DNA from: a phage
Reading direction: 5' to 3' (one strand)
DNA length: 40,794 nucleotides
Sequence record: PZ683264.1
The position numbers were made by a program, and so were the translations under genes. The notes beneath the pieces were generated by a model. It had not been told where the DNA came from. It saw nothing but the letters and a program-made list of their open reading frames with translations, and ran no database searches. This document shows positions 9,678-39,044 of this stretch, piece by piece (position 1 is the stretch's first letter; the number at the start of each line of letters is the position of its first letter).

Positions 9678-9689
9678 CATCCTGCTTAA

Positions 9690-11314
<1,625 letters not shown>

Positions 11315-30964: not shown

Positions 30965-33055
30965 TTATCCTTGAACGAACTTGTAAGGCATGTTTGCAAT
31001 ATCTATGCAAGACGCAATAATTCCAAGAGATGATTCTACTTTCTGTTTAACATTTGATGAAACAAATGATGCAAAGTCAACTCTGTCTTCTATATCACCT
31101 GTCATTGTAACTACTTCACCGGTTTCCATTAAATGGTCTCCGTCATAGATTACCGATTCGGTGAGCTCTTCCGTGGTCATAACTTCAGCTTGAATGAGTT
31201 TTGTATTATTAGATGTTGTTCCGTCATTATTAGAAGCATCAGTTATTTTATTAACTTTGACCATCAATCCACGCGGTAGAATAACTTCAGCTTCTGTTGC
31301 TATTCCGAGACTTCCTGGATATACAACATTAACTTTATGAGCTCCATCAATTGCCCATCCTATTTGAACTTTAACGTATTCAGGATTTTCTTTATACGCT
31401 CTTATTTCGTTTGGATTAATAGTTATTCCTTCTTCATTTTTATCAACTGTTAATTCATTGCGAGCTTCTGGTTCTAAAAGACCAATACCAGCATGTGTGA
31501 TTCCAAAACGTCCAAAAATGATAGGAGTTAAAGAAGTAGATACAAAATTTCTGAAGTAGAACACTTTATTTTTAACTAACGCTTCGTATATAGGAGCAGT
31601 CATACTTTGAGCACGATAAACTGTGATGCCTTCCGGTATGCGGTCACCATTTTCAAAAGCTGAATCTAAGTTATTTATAGCAGATTCAATTTCTTTTTCA
31701 CTCATTACATCATATCGTTCTGGATTGTAACGACCTAAAAGAAGATTATTGATGTCAGTATATCCTGAACCGCAATATTCTCTAATGCCACGCTTTTGTG
31801 ATGGAGTATATTTAGAACCATCGCGGGCAATAGTAATATCAATCATTGGACCAGCACCAATTCCAGAAAAACTGTAAATCATTCGTTTGAGGAATTTAGT
31901 TTTTGCTGCGTTCCAGGAATTTTTAGTTATTTCTTCCCAGACTTCATCTGGTTGTCCTTTACGAGTTTTATTATGTTTATCAAGCCAATTATCTTTATAT
32001 TCTTCAAAGAGTTGATTAACAGCTGCTGTGTATTTCTCTAAACATTTTATTGAAGTAGTTGGTTCATTTTTAATTGCATTAAAAATTACTTCTTTAATTT
32101 TTTCTGAAACTTCACCGACTTGACTCATTGGAAAGAATTTATAATCATAGTGAAGTTCATCTGCCGTTCCTTCAGCAATAATTTTTGCTGCCTTTGTTTT
32201 AGAAGCTAATGAATTAATTCCAATTTTCATTTCTTCTGCTTCGGGAATTAAAGGTGCAGTAGCTGGTTTATTAAAATTAGCTGCTGTAGATTCATACTTA
32301 TGGAATAATTCACTTTCAAATCTAGAAGATTCCAATGACTGACTTTGTGCAATTGCTCTACGGGAAATTTTAACTTTAACGATTACAGCTTGGTCAGAAC
32401 GTTTATCATTTTCTTGTGCAATTGATGCTGCAATTGCCTCATTTTTAGTTACTTGGGCTCCAGTATCTTTATTGATATAAACATCACCGACCTTCGATTC
32501 AACTTTAGTAAAGAGCTCGGTACTAATTTCCGGAACTCCTGGAATGTCTTCTAGTGATACATTTTTGCGATGTATAAGAATATATGCATACTTTTTATCA
32601 TAATCCCAGAGTTCCTTAAGAAGGACGTATCTGCCACCTGAACGACTACGGATAAGTCTATCAGCAATAACTTGAATTTGTCGAGCTTGACCAGCGGTTT
32701 TAGACTTAAGAATACGAAGCATACAAGCATCAATTTTATACTGACGCATTGTTTGCATTGCAACAGTAAAAACCGAATTGATATAATTAATTGGGCTTGG
32801 ACCAAGACCTTTCAATTTAGCAATTGAACCTTTAGCGGTTAATGTAAAAGGAACAATATGCATCATTTTATCGCCCATCTTTAAATCACGATTAGTATCA
32901 CCTCCAGATGTATAGGTACATAAACGAAAGCCTGGTTGTTCAATTGCATCATCAACATGAACTGAAAAAATTTGTGGTATTTTCTTCTTTGGATTTAAGT
33001 TTGTAATCGGAAGAGTAGTATCTTCGTCAAATAATTCTGTAATTAGTTCCATCAT
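30965..33055 (-). CDS. alt: Alt ADP-ribosyltransferase (packaged, modifies host RNA polymerase)
   Basis: 696 aa; position between gene 54 and ligase gene 30; late promoter motif upstream. Confidence 0.85.
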   Translation of the reverse strand: MMELITELFDEDTTLPITNLNPKKKIPQIFSVHVDDAIEQPGFRLCTYTSGGDTNRDLKMGDKMMHIVPFTLTAKGSIAKLKGLGPSPINYINSVFTVAMQTMRQYKIDACMLRILKSKTAGQARQIQVIADRLIRSRSGGRYVLLKELWDYDKKYAYILIHRKNVSLEDIPGVPEISTELFTKVESKVGDVYINKDTGAQVTKNEAIAASIAQENDKRSDQAVIVKVKISRRAIAQSQSLESSRFESELFHKYESTAANFNKPATAPLIPEAEEMKIGINSLASKTKAAKIIAEGTADELHYDYKFFPMSQVGEVSEKIKEVIFNAIKNEPTTSIKCLEKYTAAVNQLFEEYKDNWLDKHNKTRKGQPDEVWEEITKNSWNAAKTKFLKRMIYSFSGIGAGPMIDITIARDGSKYTPSQKRGIREYCGSGYTDINNLLLGRYNPERYDVMSEKEIESAINNLDSAFENGDRIPEGITVYRAQSMTAPIYEALVKNKVFYFRNFVSTSLTPIIFGRFGITHAGIGLLEPEARNELTVDKNEEGITINPNEIRAYKENPEYVKVQIGWAIDGAHKVNVVYPGSLGIATEAEVILPRGLMVKVNKITDASNNDGTTSNNTKLIQAEVMTTEELTESVIYDGDHLMETGEVVTMTGDIEDRVDFASFVSSNVKQKVESSLGIIASCIDIANMPYKFVQG

Positions 33056-33106: not shown

Positions 33107-33293
33107 AATAATCTATTGGTAAGAGAGTACGATATATTTCAAACTTTGGTCCTTTTTCATAGGCATCAAATGTTTCTGTGAATTTATTATAAGCGTATGC
33201 ATCTACAAATTCGAGAATGACTTGTGATACAGAAGTAGAAACATCTCCACCTTCTTTTTGAGCAACGACAATTGTTTCTAAGTAAGCTTTCAT
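33105..33293 (-). CDS. Hypothetical small protein
   Basis: 62 aa, ATG with GAGGT Shine-Dalgarno; ATGA overlap with the gene 30 stop. Confidence 0.55.
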   Translation of the reverse strand: MKAYLETIVVAQKEGGDVSTSVSQVILEFVDAYAYNKFTETFDAYEKGPKFEIYRTLLPIDY

Positions 33294-34753
33294 AGACCAG
33301 TTACCTCATGAAAATCACCAAATACATCCTCGAATGTATTAGCTTTAGTTTTATCTTCACGTAAACGAATCGCAATCGGAAGAAATAATTTAACGTAATC
33401 AGTGCGGCCGTCAGATTTTAACCAACCATTACATTCGCATTCTAGAATTTTTCCAATATAATAATTTTGGTTTTCCATGATGCGAGTACGGTCAAGTTCA
33501 TGCGATTTTACACCGGCTTTATCTTTTAAGCCTGAACCAGCATTTACTTTAATTTTTCCACACTCTGATTCAAGAATAAATCCACCTGCTTTAGTAGGGT
33601 CTTTACGGTGAGGATAAATTCCTACAATTTTTAAATCAACATCAATTACTTCTTTAAATTTATAGAGATTTTTTGAACGAGCATTTTCCCATAATCCATC
33701 GATATTTTTGAGAATAATACCTTCAAGACCTTGGTCAATATACTTTTTATAAATTACCTTAGCTTCATCTAGGTTATTTACTACCTGGTTTTCAATTAAA
33801 ATTACTTTATCATAGCCTGATGTCATTTGTTCTAGTTTAGAAAAACGTACATCATATTTCAAACGAAATGCAGGAAGACCGTATATTTCTACCAATGGAA
33901 CATAATCCCAGACCTGAAACTTCATGCATTGAGCTTCTTTTTCAGAAATGGTTCCCTTTAAAGATTTATTAGCGATTCCATTAGAAGTAGTACGTGATTC
34001 AGCTACTTCGGCGAATTCTTTGGCTTTACTAATTTCAGGATAAGCATCAAAAAGAAAATCTAGGCCTTCTGGCTCCTTTTTAACTTGCTCATGGTATACC
34101 AATTCGCCATCAATTAACACGCCTTCTGGATGAATCTGGCGGGCTTCAGCGGTCATTTTGATTAATTCTTCCTTAAGAAGATCTAATCCTAGATATTCAT
34201 TACCGGCTCGTGATAAAAGACGAACATCATCTAATTCATCACCTCTGACTTCGGCAAAGCACCGAGCCCCATCAGCTTTTAACTGGGCAAAGGCTGGAAA
34301 TTTGATATTCTTATTAATGCCTTTTTCATCATAAGAACTTGCCAGCATTTGAGGTTGTTCAGGAATTAAACCTGGCCAAACTTTGTTTGCAATAGATACT
34401 GAAGCACCACATTCAAGGTCTCGCATCATCACTCGACGCAAAACTTCAACATCATCTTTTTTACCATCAGTGATATATCCAGTTAATTCCTCAATTGCCG
34501 CATTTCCAGTCAATTTCCGAGTAGCTAACGTGAATTCAATGAAGTCGAGCATATCGGTAAGAGTCAACATTCCAAAACTCTGGGTAGCAATACCCGGTTT
34601 AGGCCATTTCTTGATATAATACTGTAACCCACGAGAATAAGTCAGACGATATACTCGTTTAAGCAATTCATTATCTTTATTCTTTTCAAGAATTGCTTGC
34701 TTCTGCTTAGTTGAACCAATAGATGCTATTTCGTTCAGAATTTTAAGAATCAT
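33290..34753 (-). CDS. 30: ATP-dependent DNA ligase gp30
   Basis: 487 aa; adenylation motif KADGAR (FAQLKADGARCF). Confidence 0.93.
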   Translation of the reverse strand: MILKILNEIASIGSTKQKQAILEKNKDNELLKRVYRLTYSRGLQYYIKKWPKPGIATQSFGMLTLTDMLDFIEFTLATRKLTGNAAIEELTGYITDGKKDDVEVLRRVMMRDLECGASVSIANKVWPGLIPEQPQMLASSYDEKGINKNIKFPAFAQLKADGARCFAEVRGDELDDVRLLSRAGNEYLGLDLLKEELIKMTAEARQIHPEGVLIDGELVYHEQVKKEPEGLDFLFDAYPEISKAKEFAEVAESRTTSNGIANKSLKGTISEKEAQCMKFQVWDYVPLVEIYGLPAFRLKYDVRFSKLEQMTSGYDKVILIENQVVNNLDEAKVIYKKYIDQGLEGIILKNIDGLWENARSKNLYKFKEVIDVDLKIVGIYPHRKDPTKAGGFILESECGKIKVNAGSGLKDKAGVKSHELDRTRIMENQNYYIGKILECECNGWLKSDGRTDYVKLFLPIAIRLREDKTKANTFEDVFGDFHEVTGL

Positions 34754-35019
34754 TGTTCATCCTTTAGAGTTTGGTTTACAGCTCTATTATAAATCAATTC
34801 ATCATTAAGCTCAGTCAAAGACCTGTGGTACGTGGTTCTAACTTTATTTCCTTGCATCCAGTGCTTGACGTAAATGAAACCTTGCTCTACACATTTTTTA
34901 AAAATTCGTTCGTCTTTTTGAGCTCGGAATTCTGGATTGCATCTAAAAAATTGATTTACGTGACCGTAATCACGTGTAGTATTACCTTCATTTTCATAAA
35001 TAGTATGAACAACAAACAT
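34750..35019 (-). CDS. Hypothetical protein (30.1 position)
   Basis: 89 aa ORF translationally coupled upstream of gene 30. Confidence 0.65.
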   Translation of the reverse strand: MFVVHTIYENEGNTTRDYGHVNQFFRCNPEFRAQKDERIFKKCVEQGFIYVKHWMQGNKVRTTYHRSLTELNDELIYNRAVNQTLKDEQ

Positions 35020-35867
35020 TAGAATGCTCCTTGGAAAATATTATCACCACTAGTAATTCTATTAAAATACCCTGTGTCACCAGGCTTAATATAACTCCAT
35101 GTATGGAATGGATGCATCTGATGTGAGTGCGTATAATATGGATGATATGGATTATAAGGATTAAATCCAGGAGTTCTCCAGGTAGTGTTCCAACGAAAAG
35201 AATCGTTTTTAATCATCTTTTCAATTACATCTTTTATAGCTTTTTCACTATCAAAACTTTCTTTATTTTCCTTTGGTGGAAAAAGCTTATTCTCTACATC
35301 ATTCCATGTATAAACTCGCTGAGCGGTTTTTGGAATACTGTCACGCTCCCCTCGAGCCATCCAATAAACAGGAACATTTAATATTTCACTTGCATGATCG
35401 CAGTGGTGAGCGAGATCGTCAATATAACAAATTACGTTATATTTCTCTTTTGCCTTTTTGAACAACTCTTCTTTTGAAGAATCATGACCACACATCAATA
35501 CTTCTGAGAAGGCACCAGGAAAAAGAGCATTCAAATTAAATTGACGATTCAGCAAAGCATCAATAGAATCACCCAATGCTGTAACAGCTACAAAATTATA
35601 ATCTTCTTTTAATTTATTAATTACACACAGGGCATCTTTATATGGAGACAAGTAACGAATAAAATCTGAACGATTGTATTTTTCAATTAACTTGACGCCA
35701 AGTTCTTCATCACAATTAAAGAGTTTACCAGGAGAAATAAATTTCTCATCTTGGATCATTTTTAAAATATGTTCTAACGGAAGATTATATTTCTGAGCAA
35801 AATAAGGGAGGCCTGATTGCCAGCTTAAACATACTCCATCAATATCAGTCAAAATAGTTGGCTTCAT
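35019..35867 (-). CDS. HAD-superfamily-like hydrolase/phosphatase (30.2 position)
   Basis: 282 aa; N-terminal ILTDIDGV matches HAD motif I (DxDx[T/V]); Pro/Tyr/His-rich C-terminal tail. Confidence 0.65.
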   Translation of the reverse strand: MKPTILTDIDGVCLSWQSGLPYFAQKYNLPLEHILKMIQDEKFISPGKLFNCDEELGVKLIEKYNRSDFIRYLSPYKDALCVINKLKEDYNFVAVTALGDSIDALLNRQFNLNALFPGAFSEVLMCGHDSSKEELFKKAKEKYNVICYIDDLAHHCDHASEILNVPVYWMARGERDSIPKTAQRVYTWNDVENKLFPPKENKESFDSEKAIKDVIEKMIKNDSFRWNTTWRTPGFNPYNPYHPYYTHSHQMHPFHTWSYIKPGDTGYFNRITSGDNIFQGAF

Positions 35868-36322
35868 AGAGAGTCTCTTAATAGGTTTAACACATCAATA
35901 AATTCAGCTTCGGTTAGTATTGTATCATCTTTTGTTAGACCACTAGCCATGCTGTGCTTCAAAACTTTTCCTTTCGAGGCTTGTAATGCATCACGAAAGC
36001 CCTTGTTTTGGATCGCTGCTTCAAAATATGCATTTGTGTATAATTCTTTCCACGCTGGAGAGTATCTTGAAAATGGAACTCCAAGCCAGAAGAGGGTTCC
36101 ACGGTCCTGAGCTCTTGCATAAGACCTTCCAGCTTGTTGGGCGGCAAGCCCGGATAACCCAAATATACGACGTTGTTGTTCAACGTTTTTCACCTTGCAT
36201 CCTTGGAGGAATCCTTCAAGACCTCCAAATTGAATACCATCCATAACGAAAGGCCATTGGGCGAAATTACTTAATGCACATGATGGCCACCTAAAATTGC
36301 TTCTAATCTCTAACTCAGACAT
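35864..36322 (-). CDS. NADAR/YbiA-like (DUF1768) domain protein (30.3 position)
   Basis: Track start 36328 is TTG, first ATG at 36322; LSNFAQWPFVMDGIQFGGLEGFLQGCKV closely parallels E. coli YbiA FSNFAAWPIKVDGKTWPTSEHYFQAQKF as recalled. Confidence 0.6.
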   Translation of the reverse strand: MSELEIRSNFRWPSCALSNFAQWPFVMDGIQFGGLEGFLQGCKVKNVEQQRRIFGLSGLAAQQAGRSYARAQDRGTLFWLGVPFSRYSPAWKELYTNAYFEAAIQNKGFRDALQASKGKVLKHSMASGLTKDDTILTEAEFIDVLNLLRDSL

Positions 36323-36530
36323 TTTCAATGCTTATAATTTCAACATCAGCCCAATGACCGTAACCCGGTAAACGGTCTTCAATAGATAATCCGCCATCAT
36401 ATTTAAGCATTTTAATTGTCATAATATATGGCTCTAAATGGTCTTCTGTGAGAGGAGAAACGTCAGTCACACGATAAGTAACTTCAACCATTTCCGTACC
36501 TAATAATTTCTGAATTAATTTCTTAAACAT
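36315..36530 (-). CDS. Hypothetical protein (30.3' position)
   Basis: 71 aa ORF, ATG start. Confidence 0.55.
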   Translation of the reverse strand: MFKKLIQKLLGTEMVEVTYRVTDVSPLTEDHLEPYIMTIKMLKYDGGLSIEDRLPGYGHWADVEIISIENV

Positions 36531-36534
36531 TTTA

Positions 36535-36822
36535 TTAGAACCTCATCTGAAAACCGTGCGATTTAACATTACCGCCGCCAATATCAGAAATGTTAATTTC
36601 ACGCGCAATTGAAGGGTCAATGTCAATTTCGCGATTGAGTTTAGTGATAGCTAAAGTATCACGCCCATTTACTGTACGGAATTCTAAAGGACAAACCACA
36701 TCAACGTAGTTTTTAATCGATTCGCTAGTAGGTTGCAAATGTGCAGGAAGATCTTTAGGCGCCTTTGAGAAAACTACTTCGCAGAAGTTTTTACGGGTAT
36801 CAAAATAAGTGGTCATAAACAT
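36535..36822 (-). CDS. Hypothetical protein (30.x family)
   Basis: 95 aa ORF, ATG start with GAGGA Shine-Dalgarno. Confidence 0.6.
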   Translation of the reverse strand: MFMTTYFDTRKNFCEVVFSKAPKDLPAHLQPTSESIKNYVDVVCPLEFRTVNGRDTLAITKLNREIDIDPSIAREINISDIGGGNVKSHGFQMRF

Positions 36823-36837
36823 AATAATTTCCTCAGT

Positions 36838-36860
36838 GAGGGGCTGAAGCCCCTCATTTT
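36838..36860. terminator. Intergenic GC hairpin with a T-run on the plus strand (possible antisense terminator or RNA processing site)
   Basis: gaggggc-tgaa-gcccctc followed on the plus strand by attttatttt; lies between two minus-strand ORFs. Confidence 0.35.
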
Positions 36861-36863
36861 ATT

Positions 36864-37229
36864 TTAAATATCAAATTCGTTAAGAACTACATCAAAGATT
36901 GCTTCGAGATGTTCAGGTTTAGCTCTGTTACTCAGAATATGACGAATCCAAGTTTTAACTAGAAGCTTGCGATTAGCACCATTCCAGCAAGGATGAGTCC
37001 CTAAATCACGTTGACGAAAATCATCATCCAAAGCAATTTTGAAGTTGGAACCTTCCATCGTGATTGAAACCGTGATACCGTTTTCAAATCGCATATAAAC
37101 GTAGTTAGGAGTCATATACTGATCGATTTCGCATACTGATCCATTTTGATGTTTCCAAAGGCAAATAGTATCAATAGAACCTGCAATACCATTAGAAACA
37201 TATTTACGTTCAAAGTTAATGTAGTTCAT
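36864..37229 (-). CDS. Hypothetical protein (30.x family)
   Basis: Track start 37241 is TTG; ATG at 37229 with GGAGA Shine-Dalgarno gives 121 aa; early-promoter-like motif upstream. Confidence 0.6.
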   Translation of the reverse strand: MNYINFERKYVSNGIAGSIDTICLWKHQNGSVCEIDQYMTPNYVYMRFENGITVSITMEGSNFKIALDDDFRQRDLGTHPCWNGANRKLLVKTWIRHILSNRAKPEHLEAIFDVVLNEFDI

Positions 37230-37265
37230 TTTATTCTCCAAGATGTTTAATTGTGGTACAGGTAT

Positions 37266-37294
37266 ATAATATCATATCCTGTACCAAAGTAAAC
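37266..37294 (-). promoter_or_regulatory. Early (sigma70-like) promoter upstream of the 36864..37229 ORF
   Basis: Minus strand GTTTAC, 17 nt, TATTAT; the -10 lies inside an 8-bp inverted repeat ggtacagg/cctgtacc. Confidence 0.45.
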
Positions 37295-37296
37295 AA

Positions 37297-37629
37297 TTAT
37301 TTTACTACTTTCCAATGCTGCATGTCAAGTTTACCAACTTTTTTCATCTTCTCAATTAAGCGTTCGGCACGTTGGCGAGCTGTAACATAATGCCATTCGC
37401 CTAATTCATTTTGTTCAATTTTTCCAACGATTACTGTATTCAATTCATAAATCCAACCAGTAAAGAAATTATGAACTTGAATTGTAAAGGTGAAATCTGT
37501 TCCCATACCTTCTGTTGTTTCTACTTCAATGATATCACCTTCAACTGCCATTAAGAACCACATAGTTTCATCATATTTACCATTGAAGCATTTAGTTTTA
37601 ACTGCAGCGTTCAGATTAATCGTTTTCAT
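37297..37629 (-). CDS. Hypothetical protein (30.x family)
   Basis: 110 aa ORF, ATG with AGGAGA Shine-Dalgarno; early-promoter-like motif and terminator upstream. Confidence 0.6.
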   Translation of the reverse strand: MKTINLNAAVKTKCFNGKYDETMWFLMAVEGDIIEVETTEGMGTDFTFTIQVHNFFTGWIYELNTVIVGKIEQNELGEWHYVTARQRAERLIEKMKKVGKLDMQHWKVVK

Positions 37630-37657
37630 TTTATTCTCCTTTGTTTGTGTAAGATAA

Positions 37658-37686
37658 TACTATCACAAAGGAGCTATACTGTAAAC
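37658..37686 (-). promoter_or_regulatory. Early promoter-like motif upstream of the 37297..37629 ORF
   Basis: Minus strand GTTTAC, 17-18 nt, TAGTAT/ATAGTA; directly downstream of a terminator hairpin. Confidence 0.4.
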
Positions 37687-37699
37687 AACTTTGTGCAAT

Positions 37700-37734
37700 C
37701 TTTGGAAAATAAAAAAGGACTCCCGAAGGAGTCC
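37700..37734 (-). terminator. Rho-independent terminator downstream of the basic-protein ORF
   Basis: ggactcc-cgaa-ggagtcc hairpin followed on the minus strand by TTTTTTATTTT. Confidence 0.7.
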
Positions 37735-37739
37735 TCAAC

Positions 37740-37958
37740 TTATGCTTTCTGCTTACCAAAACGAGAAGCATCATCTCGAAGAACCGCACGTGCTCGGCGC
37801 ATGATCTTCTCAACAGTTTGATTGATACGAGAGTTCGACCCACGCTTGTAACCAGCGCGTTTAGAATCACCAACTTTCTTTTCAACTGCTTTCTTTGCTT
37901 TAGCTTGTTTTGCCATTATAAATTCTCTTTTAAATGAAAATGCAGGACTTATTGGCAT
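37740..37958 (-). CDS. Small highly basic protein (Lys/Arg-rich), possible nucleic-acid binder
   Basis: 72 aa per track; internal start at MAKQAKAKKAVEKK (37916) also possible; followed by a terminator hairpin; my hand count of this stretch disagreed with the track frame by 1 nt. Confidence 0.5.
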   Translation of the reverse strand: MPISPAFSFKREFIMAKQAKAKKAVEKKVGDSKRAGYKRGSNSRINQTVEKIMRRARAVLRDDASRFGKQKA

Positions 37959-38312
37959 TGCCTGCGAAAGCCCTCAAGGGGTACTTAGGTTTTGAATATT
38001 TAACGACAGGATAACCATAAACCCGTCATCATACCTTATAGCTCTTATCTGTTGCACACCGTTAGCTTAAAGGTTCCGGGTTCGATTTCTCGAGGATAAG
38101 ATATATACTGATGGATATATAGGCCTTGAGGCGTACTCCCGATTGGCCATCACCTCGGGGTAGCATGCACTTGCCGCTATAAGAATAACATTCAAGAGGT
38201 ACACCATAAAACTGCCGGGGTCTTAAAACTATAATGATTCGCAAATCATTAATCAGACAGTTCGATGGCTCCTCGATTTTAGCTCACACTAAGGCAGTGA
38301 ATCTCCAATAAA
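37959..38312. other. ORF-poor ~350-bp intergenic region with several predicted stem-loops
   Basis: No ATG-initiated ORF of 60 aa or more on either strand; long-range complementarity cctcaagg (about 37971) / ccttgagg (about 38124), tcttatc (about 38043) / gataaga (about 38095), and hairpin aatgatt-cgcaa-atcatt (about 38233-38254). Confidence 0.5.
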
Positions 38313-38561
38313 TTATTTCAGTGTTACCACAAAGTGACGAACTGCTTTTCGTGCAGCAGAAGCCAAAGGCTTAGCATACTTAAGTTCATCTTTTTCCTGA
38401 AGCTCAGCAGCTAATGCAGTTTGAGCAGGATTCAGATGTTTGAAATAACGCAGGATTTCAAGAGCTTCGGCTTCAACATCAATAGATGCGCCATAGTTTT
38501 CGTGACCATTATTCCATGCGTTTCGTTGCAGTTCAAGAGCGTGTTGTAATTGTTTAATCAT
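38313..38561 (-). CDS. rIII: rIII lysis inhibition accessory protein
   Basis: 82 aa starting MIKQLQHALELQRNAWNNGHENYG; directly downstream of gene 31. Confidence 0.85.
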   Translation of the reverse strand: MIKQLQHALELQRNAWNNGHENYGASIDVEAEALEILRYFKHLNPAQTALAAELQEKDELKYAKPLASAARKAVRHFVVTLK

Positions 38562-38699
38562 TTAAAAATTCTCGTTAGAGATTAAAACTCGGTAGTCACG
38601 TTCTTCTGAATTTCATCTTCTTTCGACAGATCTCTCAGTTGTAGACTACCACATAGAATTGTTCGGTTAACTTATTATTCCGACACCCAATTCATATTA

Positions 38700-38707
38700 T
38701 TATTTAT
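38700..38707 (-). promoter_or_regulatory. Late promoter core TATAAATA (minus strand) upstream of rIII
   Basis: Plus-strand tatttata just after the gene 31 stop, about 140 nt upstream of rIII. Confidence 0.45.
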
Positions 38708-38708
38708 A

Positions 38709-39044
38709 TCACTTATAAAGACACGGAATAGCTTTATAATGACAGGTAACAAATTTTTGTTTAATTTCTTTTGGCTGCTTAAGACCCAGAGCTACAAAAG
38801 GATGCGGAACATTTCGAATTTGACCAATTGGAAGAGAAGTCAAATCACCAACTTCGCAGAAACCTTTAGGAACATCAGGACCAACAGAGTGAACTACACA
38901 CAATTCAGGAACTTCACCTTGAACACGTTTACCGATAATAAGTCCTGATTCTGTAACTTCTTCATCACCGGCTTGTGCAGGTTCAGAAACTAAAATAACA
39001 TATTCACCGACAGCACGAATTGGTAGCTGTTGTACTTCAGACAT
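38709..39044 (-). CDS. 31: gp31 co-chaperonin (GroES functional analogue)
   Basis: 111 aa starting [22 protein letters not shown]; MotA-type middle promoter upstream. Confidence 0.9.

Follow-up and report, generated by a model that had tools for sequence, protein, structure and literature searches.

Phage T4 carries a run of small genes, 30.1–30.9, between gene 30 (ligase) and rIII (NC_000866, ~127.2–130.5 kb). Published T4 transposon sequencing in Escherichia coli K-12 found all of the 30.x genes (30.1–30.9) to be non-essential, with 95–100% of sites hit. One of these genes has a demonstrated role on particular hosts: T4 gp30.3 has been renamed AdfN, and phage crosses, deletion and ectopic expression established that it is necessary and sufficient against DarTG1 (bioRxiv 10.1101/2024.07.11.602962). 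The hyperplastic regions of T4-type phages have also been described as containing PeSL cassettes, in which a stem-loop and then an early promoter (TTTACW-N17-TAYWAT) lie between small accessory open reading frames (ORFs) (Arbiol 2010, PMC2839356; Comeau 2014, PMC4122927). Here we describe a block of eight ORFs at positions 34750–37958 of a 40,794-nucleotide stretch of phage DNA (sequence record PZ683264.1; the whole stretch is referred to as the window). This block is very probably the gene 30.1–30.9 region of a Tequatrovirus (T4-type phage), that is, a variable, dispensable region between conserved core genes.

The eight ORFs are consecutive and tightly packed on the minus strand, bounded by ligase (33290–34753) on one side and by the rIII–30.9 spacer, the "ORF-free region" of a first-pass annotation made from the letters alone, on the other; the layout given there was confirmed. 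They are orthologues of T4 30.1, 30.2, 30.3, 30.4, 30.6, 30.7, 30.8 and 30.9, and in BLASTP comparisons the block proteins passed a reciprocal-best-match test against the T4 proteins, with identities of 99% (30.1), 93% (30.2), 99% (30.3), 53% (30.4), 99% (30.6), 98% (30.7), 100% (30.8) and 100% (30.9). Position between gene 30 and rIII, strand and order are as in T4. The block differs from that of T4 in having no counterpart of gene 30.5 by BLASTP, in a 30.4 allele that resembles the allele of another genus, in insertions and deletions in the 30.2 tail, and in an rIII–30.9 spacer that is 153 bp longer. Phages PP01, SA21RB and UFV13 have a gene arrangement identical to that of the block.

All eight proteins were assigned to PHROG families, and four of them to Pfam families (DUF3045, Phage_30_3, Phage_T4_Gp30_7 and Phage_30_8). 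Of the 763 phage records that the DNA of the block matched, 485 aligned along 80% of the block or more; among the matches listed, the full-length ones were 94–96% identical, and every one was to a T4-type phage. The breadth of these matches, together with the family assignments, indicates that the ORFs are genuine genes and did not arise by chance. When the T4 start codons are used, which place the starts of 30.9, 30.7 and 30.3 at 37916, 37229 and 36322, the products range from 58 to 282 amino acids; the lower bound of 62 given earlier was mistaken, since the 62-amino-acid ORF is alt.1, which lies beyond ligase. The genes are as follows.

34750–35019, minus strand: 30.1, 89 amino acids, DUF3045 (Pfam PF11243, 213.6 bits); its stop overlaps the ligase start (ATGA).
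35019–35867, minus strand: 30.2, 282 amino acids; residues 1–195 are a predicted C1-capped HAD phosphatase domain, followed by a variable C-terminal tail rich in proline and aromatic residues.
35864–36322, minus strand: 30.3 (adfN), 152 amino acids, phage NADAR DNA ADP-ribosylglycohydrolase countering DarTG1, the function being taken from papers on the T4 protein.
36315–36530, minus strand: 30.4, 71 amino acids, variant allele, PHROG 2042.
36535–36822, minus strand: 30.6, 95 amino acids, PHROG 2153; first gene of a putative coupled string that runs to gene 30.
36864–37229, minus strand: 30.7, 121 amino acids.
37297–37629, minus strand: 30.8, 110 amino acids (Pfam PF06019, 196 bits).
37740–37916, minus strand: 30.9, 58 amino acids, isoelectric point 11.4, with 19 lysine plus arginine residues and 5 acidic residues.

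Scans of the eight proteins against Pfam, NCBIfam and PADLOC returned self-named phage families only. No protein matched a PADLOC defence model at E ≤ 0.1, and none had a hydrophobic stretch of membrane-spanning length. The block is already known, and it contains no new multi-gene system, in agreement with the first-pass annotation, whose calls of a HAD-like protein (30.2), a NADAR-like protein (30.3) and a basic protein (30.9) were also all correct.

The strongest case for a host-interaction function is 30.3. The window protein matched Pfam PF08010 with 235.2 bits (cut-off 36) and is identical to T4 gp30.3 at 151 of 152 residues (99.3%), the single difference being an I to M substitution at about residue 126. 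Purified AdfN strips ADP-ribose from DarT1-modified DNA, and the E36A and K43A variants have no activity; RB69, whose allele is shorter by the final 15 residues, is DarTG1-sensitive (10.1101/2024.07.11.602962). As read from its sequence, the window protein has both E36 and K43 and, unlike the truncated RB69 protein, a complete C-terminal helix. Phage NADARs have also been covered by an independent in vitro study (PMC11125620), and in T4 transposon sequencing adfN insertions were lost solely when DarTG1 was present (10.1101/2025.11.20.689424). By likeness to T4 AdfN, an orphan antitoxin against DarTG1, gp30.3 of the window would hydrolyse the ADP-ribose that the DarT1 toxin puts on guanines of phage DNA, so that replication could proceed in DarTG1 hosts, as shown for the 99%-identical T4 protein. 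The earlier proposal that this early block is the likely home of host-interaction or anti-defence functions is therefore supported, chiefly by AdfN, and the region is variable and dispensable. A single-sequence PDB search with 30.3 found nothing. The out-of-frame ORF known in T4 as 30.3-prime, which lies inside 30.3, is open in the window (35959–36183, minus strand), with a TTG start in place of the T4 ATG; this start casts some doubt on its being a real gene.

We compared the region among T4-like phages, using 81 sampled loci that were fetched through 30.2. Gene content between 30.9 and 30.2 varies widely, around a conserved skeleton of gp31, rIII, 30.9, a variable segment, 30.2, sometimes 30.1, and ligase. 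The minimal form, in locus L067, reads gp31–30.9–30.2–ligase, and 30.9 is one of only two block genes kept in the smallest versions of the region. On gene content, the shuffled cargo is 30.3 to 30.8. The window 30.4 is 72–90% identical to the allele in the phages of loci L008–L017, whose ligase is only 62–70% identical; the comparison suggests that 30.4 arrived by recombination. Other signs of shuffling inside the block, beside this foreign-looking 30.4 and the missing 30.5, are the loss of 30.7 and 30.8 from locus L004 and two fusions: protein P0179, which joins 30.3 and 30.7 domains, and protein P0014, which joins 30.2 to DUF3045 (30.1).

The first-pass annotation had noted promoter-like motifs and two hairpins within the block and had read them as implying semi-independent expression. 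The features that bear on this are the following.

37705–37736, minus strand: intrinsic terminator 3′ of 30.9, with a hairpin at 37736–37715 (9-bp stem, UUCG loop) and a T-run.
37657–37686, minus strand: T4-early-type promoter upstream of 30.8 (GTTTAC, 14 nt, GTGA, TAGTAT).
37266–37294, minus strand: T4-early-type promoter upstream of 30.7, overlapping the inverted repeat TACAGG/CCTGTA; the homologous site is annotated in SA21RB.
36835–36858, minus strand: hairpin between 30.7 and 30.6, with a 7-bp G+C stem and no T-run on the coding strand.
34786–34810, minus strand: middle-promoter-like site inside 30.1, upstream of ligase, with a MotA box GCTT and then TATAAT (GCTTAATGATGAATTGATTTATAAT).

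Both hairpins therefore exist, within a few nucleotides of where they had been placed (37700–37734 and 36838–36860). The Shine-Dalgarno sequence of 30.6, GAGG, follows directly after the hairpin at 36858–36835, and the annotation of SA21RB has a terminator at the counterpart of this hairpin. As to the promoter-like motifs, the T4-early pattern GTTTAC-N17–19-TANNNT occurs only three times in the window, and two of the three occurrences closely precede 30.8 and 30.7, each on the correct strand. A generic sigma-70 scan gave 21 sites against 14.5 ± 3.4 expected, which is not clearly above chance. The middle-promoter-like site is a consensus match only, and SA21RB has a middle promoter annotated at the same position.

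In the manner of a PeSL cassette, the 30.9/30.8 spacer holds the terminator and then the early promoter at 37657–37686 between accessory ORFs, and we counted the 30.8/30.7 spacer, in which an inverted repeat overlaps the promoter at 37294–37266, toward the same pattern. The likeness is incomplete: the −10 box upstream of 30.8, TAGTAT, departs from the consensus at one position, and the 30.7/30.6 hairpin has no promoter. The part played by PeSL cassettes in recombination is suggested here circumstantially, by gene-content differences and allele swaps.

From the DNA and from what is known of T4, the block would be transcribed leftward, early in infection. Semi-independent expression holds for 30.9, 30.8 and 30.7, each of which would have its own T4-early-type promoter or hairpin, 30.9 being effectively its own transcription unit. 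It does not hold for the remainder. The junctions from 30.6 to ligase abut or overlap (TAA-N4-ATG, an 8-nt overlap, ATGA, TAATG and ATGA), and since stop and start codons meet in this way, 30.6-30.4-30.3-30.2-30.1-30 would form one translationally coupled string rather than independent units. Genes 30.7 and 30.8 each have a GGAG Shine-Dalgarno sequence. The T4 RegB nuclease cuts ribosome-binding sites of this type and so turns off the early messages that carry them. T4 30.7 mRNA taken 2 min post-infection has been used as a RegB cleavage substrate (PMC9409239), and the two observations are consistent with immediate-early expression followed by RegB shut-off.

Among the proteins other than AdfN, gp30.9 is strongly constrained. 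It is 76–97% identical in phages whose ligase is just 43–58% identical, making it better conserved than an essential protein, and the corresponding 30.9 DNA is ~78% identical; the difference between the two figures for 30.9 indicates that constraint acts on the protein. The aligned family has an invariant core, SKRA.YK..SN. Searching 1.84 billion representative proteins with a 30.9 profile gave 17 matches; 16 of these are either fragments or short members of the 30.9 family, and the seventeenth, P0189, is a low-complexity repeat protein that we dismissed as spurious. No relative was found in the PDB with the profile, and a match to SlmA (E = 0.15) was treated as chance. On these comparisons gp30.9 is a strongly constrained basic protein, and its target is probably a nucleic acid or else something different that is conserved in host or phage.

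The products of 30.1, 30.4, 30.6, 30.7 and 30.8 had no recognisable relatives in the scans made. Clear conserved motifs are present in 30.1 and 30.8, neither of whose profiles found a relative in the PDB, and for 30.7 neither the predicted model nor the profile had a significant PDB match; across 30.1, 30.7, 30.8 and 30.9, no PDB profile search gave anything below E = 0.08. A match of 30.1 to T4 endonuclease V (E = 1) was treated as chance. The 30.7 model, a seven-strand meander with two helices, has a predicted local distance difference test score (pLDDT) of 79. Gene 30.1 was found solely between 30.2 and ligase, in 27 of the 81 loci. By analogy alone, these five would be phage-only accessory proteins that are useful on particular hosts. 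Separately, one or more of the seven block proteins other than gp30.3 may be a new kind of counter-defence factor.

Gene 30.2 stands apart from this group. HAD motifs I (DxD), II (T/S), III (K) and IV (DD) are all present: D8, D10 and K132 are invariant in 49 homologues, across which conservation is 90% or higher at T96, D150 and D151. In an AlphaFold2 (AF2) model, pLDDT exceeds 90 over residues ~1–195 and is below 50 over residues 242–282, so that the tail is predicted to be unstructured from about residue 240. The modelled domain has a Rossmann-like core with a helical cap inserted between motifs I and II. With the model as query, Foldseek gave 102 matches in the PDB at E ≤ 0.001, nearly all of the top 50 being HAD-fold enzymes. 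The best matches by TM-score (0.63–0.70, target-normalised) and root-mean-square deviation include cytosolic and mitochondrial 5′(3′)-deoxyribonucleotidases and a bacterial deoxyribonucleotidase-like protein (2jao, 2i7d and 3bwv). Pfam models are touched by some homologues, namely NT5C (PF06941) by 7 of 49 (best E 1.2e-4) and PF00702 by 13 of 49 (best E 3.4e-4). The window protein reached no NCBIfam model, and a single-sequence PDB search with it found nothing. Like NT5C (PF06941), 30.2 has a HAD core, a helical C1 cap and the motif I context DxDGVL....SGL; unlike NT5C, to which it is 16–20% identical, it has an additional 85-residue disordered tail, and general HAD enzymes match its structure equally well. 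In HAD enzymes a C1 cap goes with a small-molecule substrate rather than a polynucleotide. We infer that gp30.2 is a catalytically intact, Mg-dependent HAD phosphatase with a small-molecule cap, for which a nucleotide of the deoxynucleoside monophosphate type is the most likely substrate class. A polynucleotide 3′-phosphatase serving ligase was also considered and rejected as a lead, given the cap domain of the model and the weakness of a PHROG polynucleotide kinase match (E = 0.0045).

These properties of 30.2 bear on whether the ligase-proximal part of the block should be read as a host-interaction region. In 75 of the 81 loci, including those of phages of 220–235 kb, 30.2 is accompanied by a ligase match, while 30.3–30.8 come and go; given this co-occurrence and the conserved skeleton, we infer that 30.2 is near-core, a partner of ligase, and does not belong to the variable cargo. 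The P0014 fusion hints weakly at joint action of 30.2 and 30.1. It is conceivable, though in our judgement somewhat doubtful, that 30.2 and perhaps 30.1 serve phage nucleotide or DNA metabolism instead of host interaction, 30.2 acting as a nucleotidase that balances or trims deoxynucleotide pools, or removes blocking phosphates, for replication, repair and ligation. Such a role would explain the co-expression of 30.2 with ligase, and it draws on the persistence of ligase beside 30.2 even in the distant large relatives, on the translational coupling of 30.2 via 30.1 to gene 30, on the invariant catalytic motifs, on 5′(3′)-deoxyribonucleotidases being the nearest specific structural and sequence relatives, and on the presence of a dCMP deaminase in the same neighbourhood. 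It sits less well with the dispensability of 30.2 in T4 on K-12, where 72 of 72 sites were hit, and with the long variable tail, which resembles a partner-binding appendage; the cap-type fold and the marginal kinase match argue against the version in which a polynucleotide end is the substrate.

It is also quite unlikely, in our view, that 30.1, 30.4, 30.6, 30.7, 30.8 and 30.9 have no function for the phage and are neutral or selfish cargo that recombination at promoter/stem-loop cassettes has shuffled. In favour of this reading, the searches gave neither homologues beyond phages nor recognisable domains for these genes, all of them are dispensable, they are patchily present across T4-like phages, and there have been allele swaps and gene loss (30.4 and 30.5). 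However, their frames stay open across genera, with protein identities of 37–97% while DNA identity falls to 64–80%; conservation is higher in 30.9 and 30.7 than in the essential ligase; the invariant residues are grouped in motifs; and the neighbouring 30.3 looked equally anonymous before DarTG1 was tried. All eight ORFs are indeed catalogued T4 proteins, the outcome that the first-pass annotation had named as telling against its proposal if their functions were unrelated, but the one with a function is anti-defence. Several points nevertheless weigh against a host-interaction reading of the block and against parts of the picture drawn above. A host-interaction function has been demonstrated for only one of the eight genes. 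The text of the published screens names no 30.x gene besides adfN as a hit (10.1101/2025.11.20.689424), and in two per-gene tables, those for the rnlA knockout and RexAB, there is no 30.x effect. The promoter and terminator calls in the window phage are consensus matches, not transcript mapping. The 30.7 model was built from 13 sequences, and three of five models had pLDDT of 53–61. For 30.2, the best PDB profile match of the family is 2jao, a deoxyribonucleotidase, at E = 0.089 only, and the window protein reaches no Pfam threshold and matches no HAD family at E ≤ 0.1.

Just outside the block, the rIII–30.9 spacer contains the sole unrecorded item that we found, a conserved structured RNA.

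38040–38178, minus strand (gene-sense): structured RNA candidate, 139 nt, supported by covariation.

Relative to T4, the RNA segment is a single clean 153-bp insertion. The inserted segment was found in 405 phage records, and all of these except one have a single copy. In other genera the RNA is 92–99% identical, as compared with 64–80% for flanking coding DNA. RNAalifold, applied to a 19-sequence alignment, predicted 42 pairs, and compensatory changes occur in 17. Paired columns were compatible in 98.4% of alignment cells, as against 27–41% when the partners were slid by 1–3 columns, and none of 500 shuffles reached the observed values on four of five measures. The gene-sense strand was assigned because of the G-U pairs. 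The folding energy of single sequences did not stand out (z = −0.8 and −0.4), and the case for the RNA therefore rests on covariation. The fold is a multi-helix one with a GAAA-capped hairpin, UCGA-GAAA-UCGA, and invariant single-stranded tracts, GGCAAG.GCAUG and GCUAACGGUG.GCAACAGAU. We rejected a protein-coding reading of the segment, since no frame is open across homologues and the variable columns have no period of three.

A covariance model found one copy in the window (38179–38040, 170 bits) and none in T4, in the closest relatives of T4 or in the distant T4-like phages searched. Rfam gave no match at E ≤ 1 over 34500–38720, nor at E ≤ 10 on the element alone, and no tRNA or tmRNA was found. 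A 20-nt motif of the RNA occurred in 20 IMG/VR contigs and in none of 185,579 bacterial and archaeal genomes. One motif match, at 9687–9706 of a 36.7-kb IMG/VR contig (L090), was accompanied by no covariance-model copy at E ≤ 1 and may be chance or a fragment. A 10-mer apparently shared with RNase P RNA, GUGCAACAGA, was regarded as chance. No published description of the RNA was found in a literature of which coverage was incomplete. By eye, a T4-early-like promoter for 30.9 apparently lies downstream of the RNA, which is why the RNA is probably not simply a 30.9 leader. A tentative reading, which we rate a serious possibility but stop short of favouring, is that the variable region extends into this "ORF-free" spacer and carries there an unrecorded class of structured RNA. 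More speculatively, the RNA may act in the phage on its own, for instance by decoying or binding some factor of the host or of its defences, or it may partner the basic protein gp30.9, which is encoded immediately downstream and is equally constrained.

One further gene of the window may be relevant to host defence. The alt gene (30965–33055, minus strand) encodes an Alt ADP-ribosyltransferase ~70% identical to T4 Alt and 97% identical to the allele of loci L006 and L007. According to the transposon-sequencing paper (10.1101/2025.11.20.689424), Mokosh type I is countered by T4 Alt and not by the Bas37 allele. Given this difference, the Alt allele that a phage carries may matter.

The block itself adds little to what is known of T4-type phages, as its catalogued T4 genes have been re-identified and one of them had already been shown to be a factor of the kind predicted. 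What the analysis does provide is a ranking for experiments, with gp30.2, a near-core, catalytically intact phosphatase of nucleotide type encoded next to ligase, and gp30.9, tiny, basic and constrained more strongly than ligase, placed ahead of the shuffled cargo of 30.4–30.8. The spacer RNA has been invisible to T4-based work because T4 lacks it.

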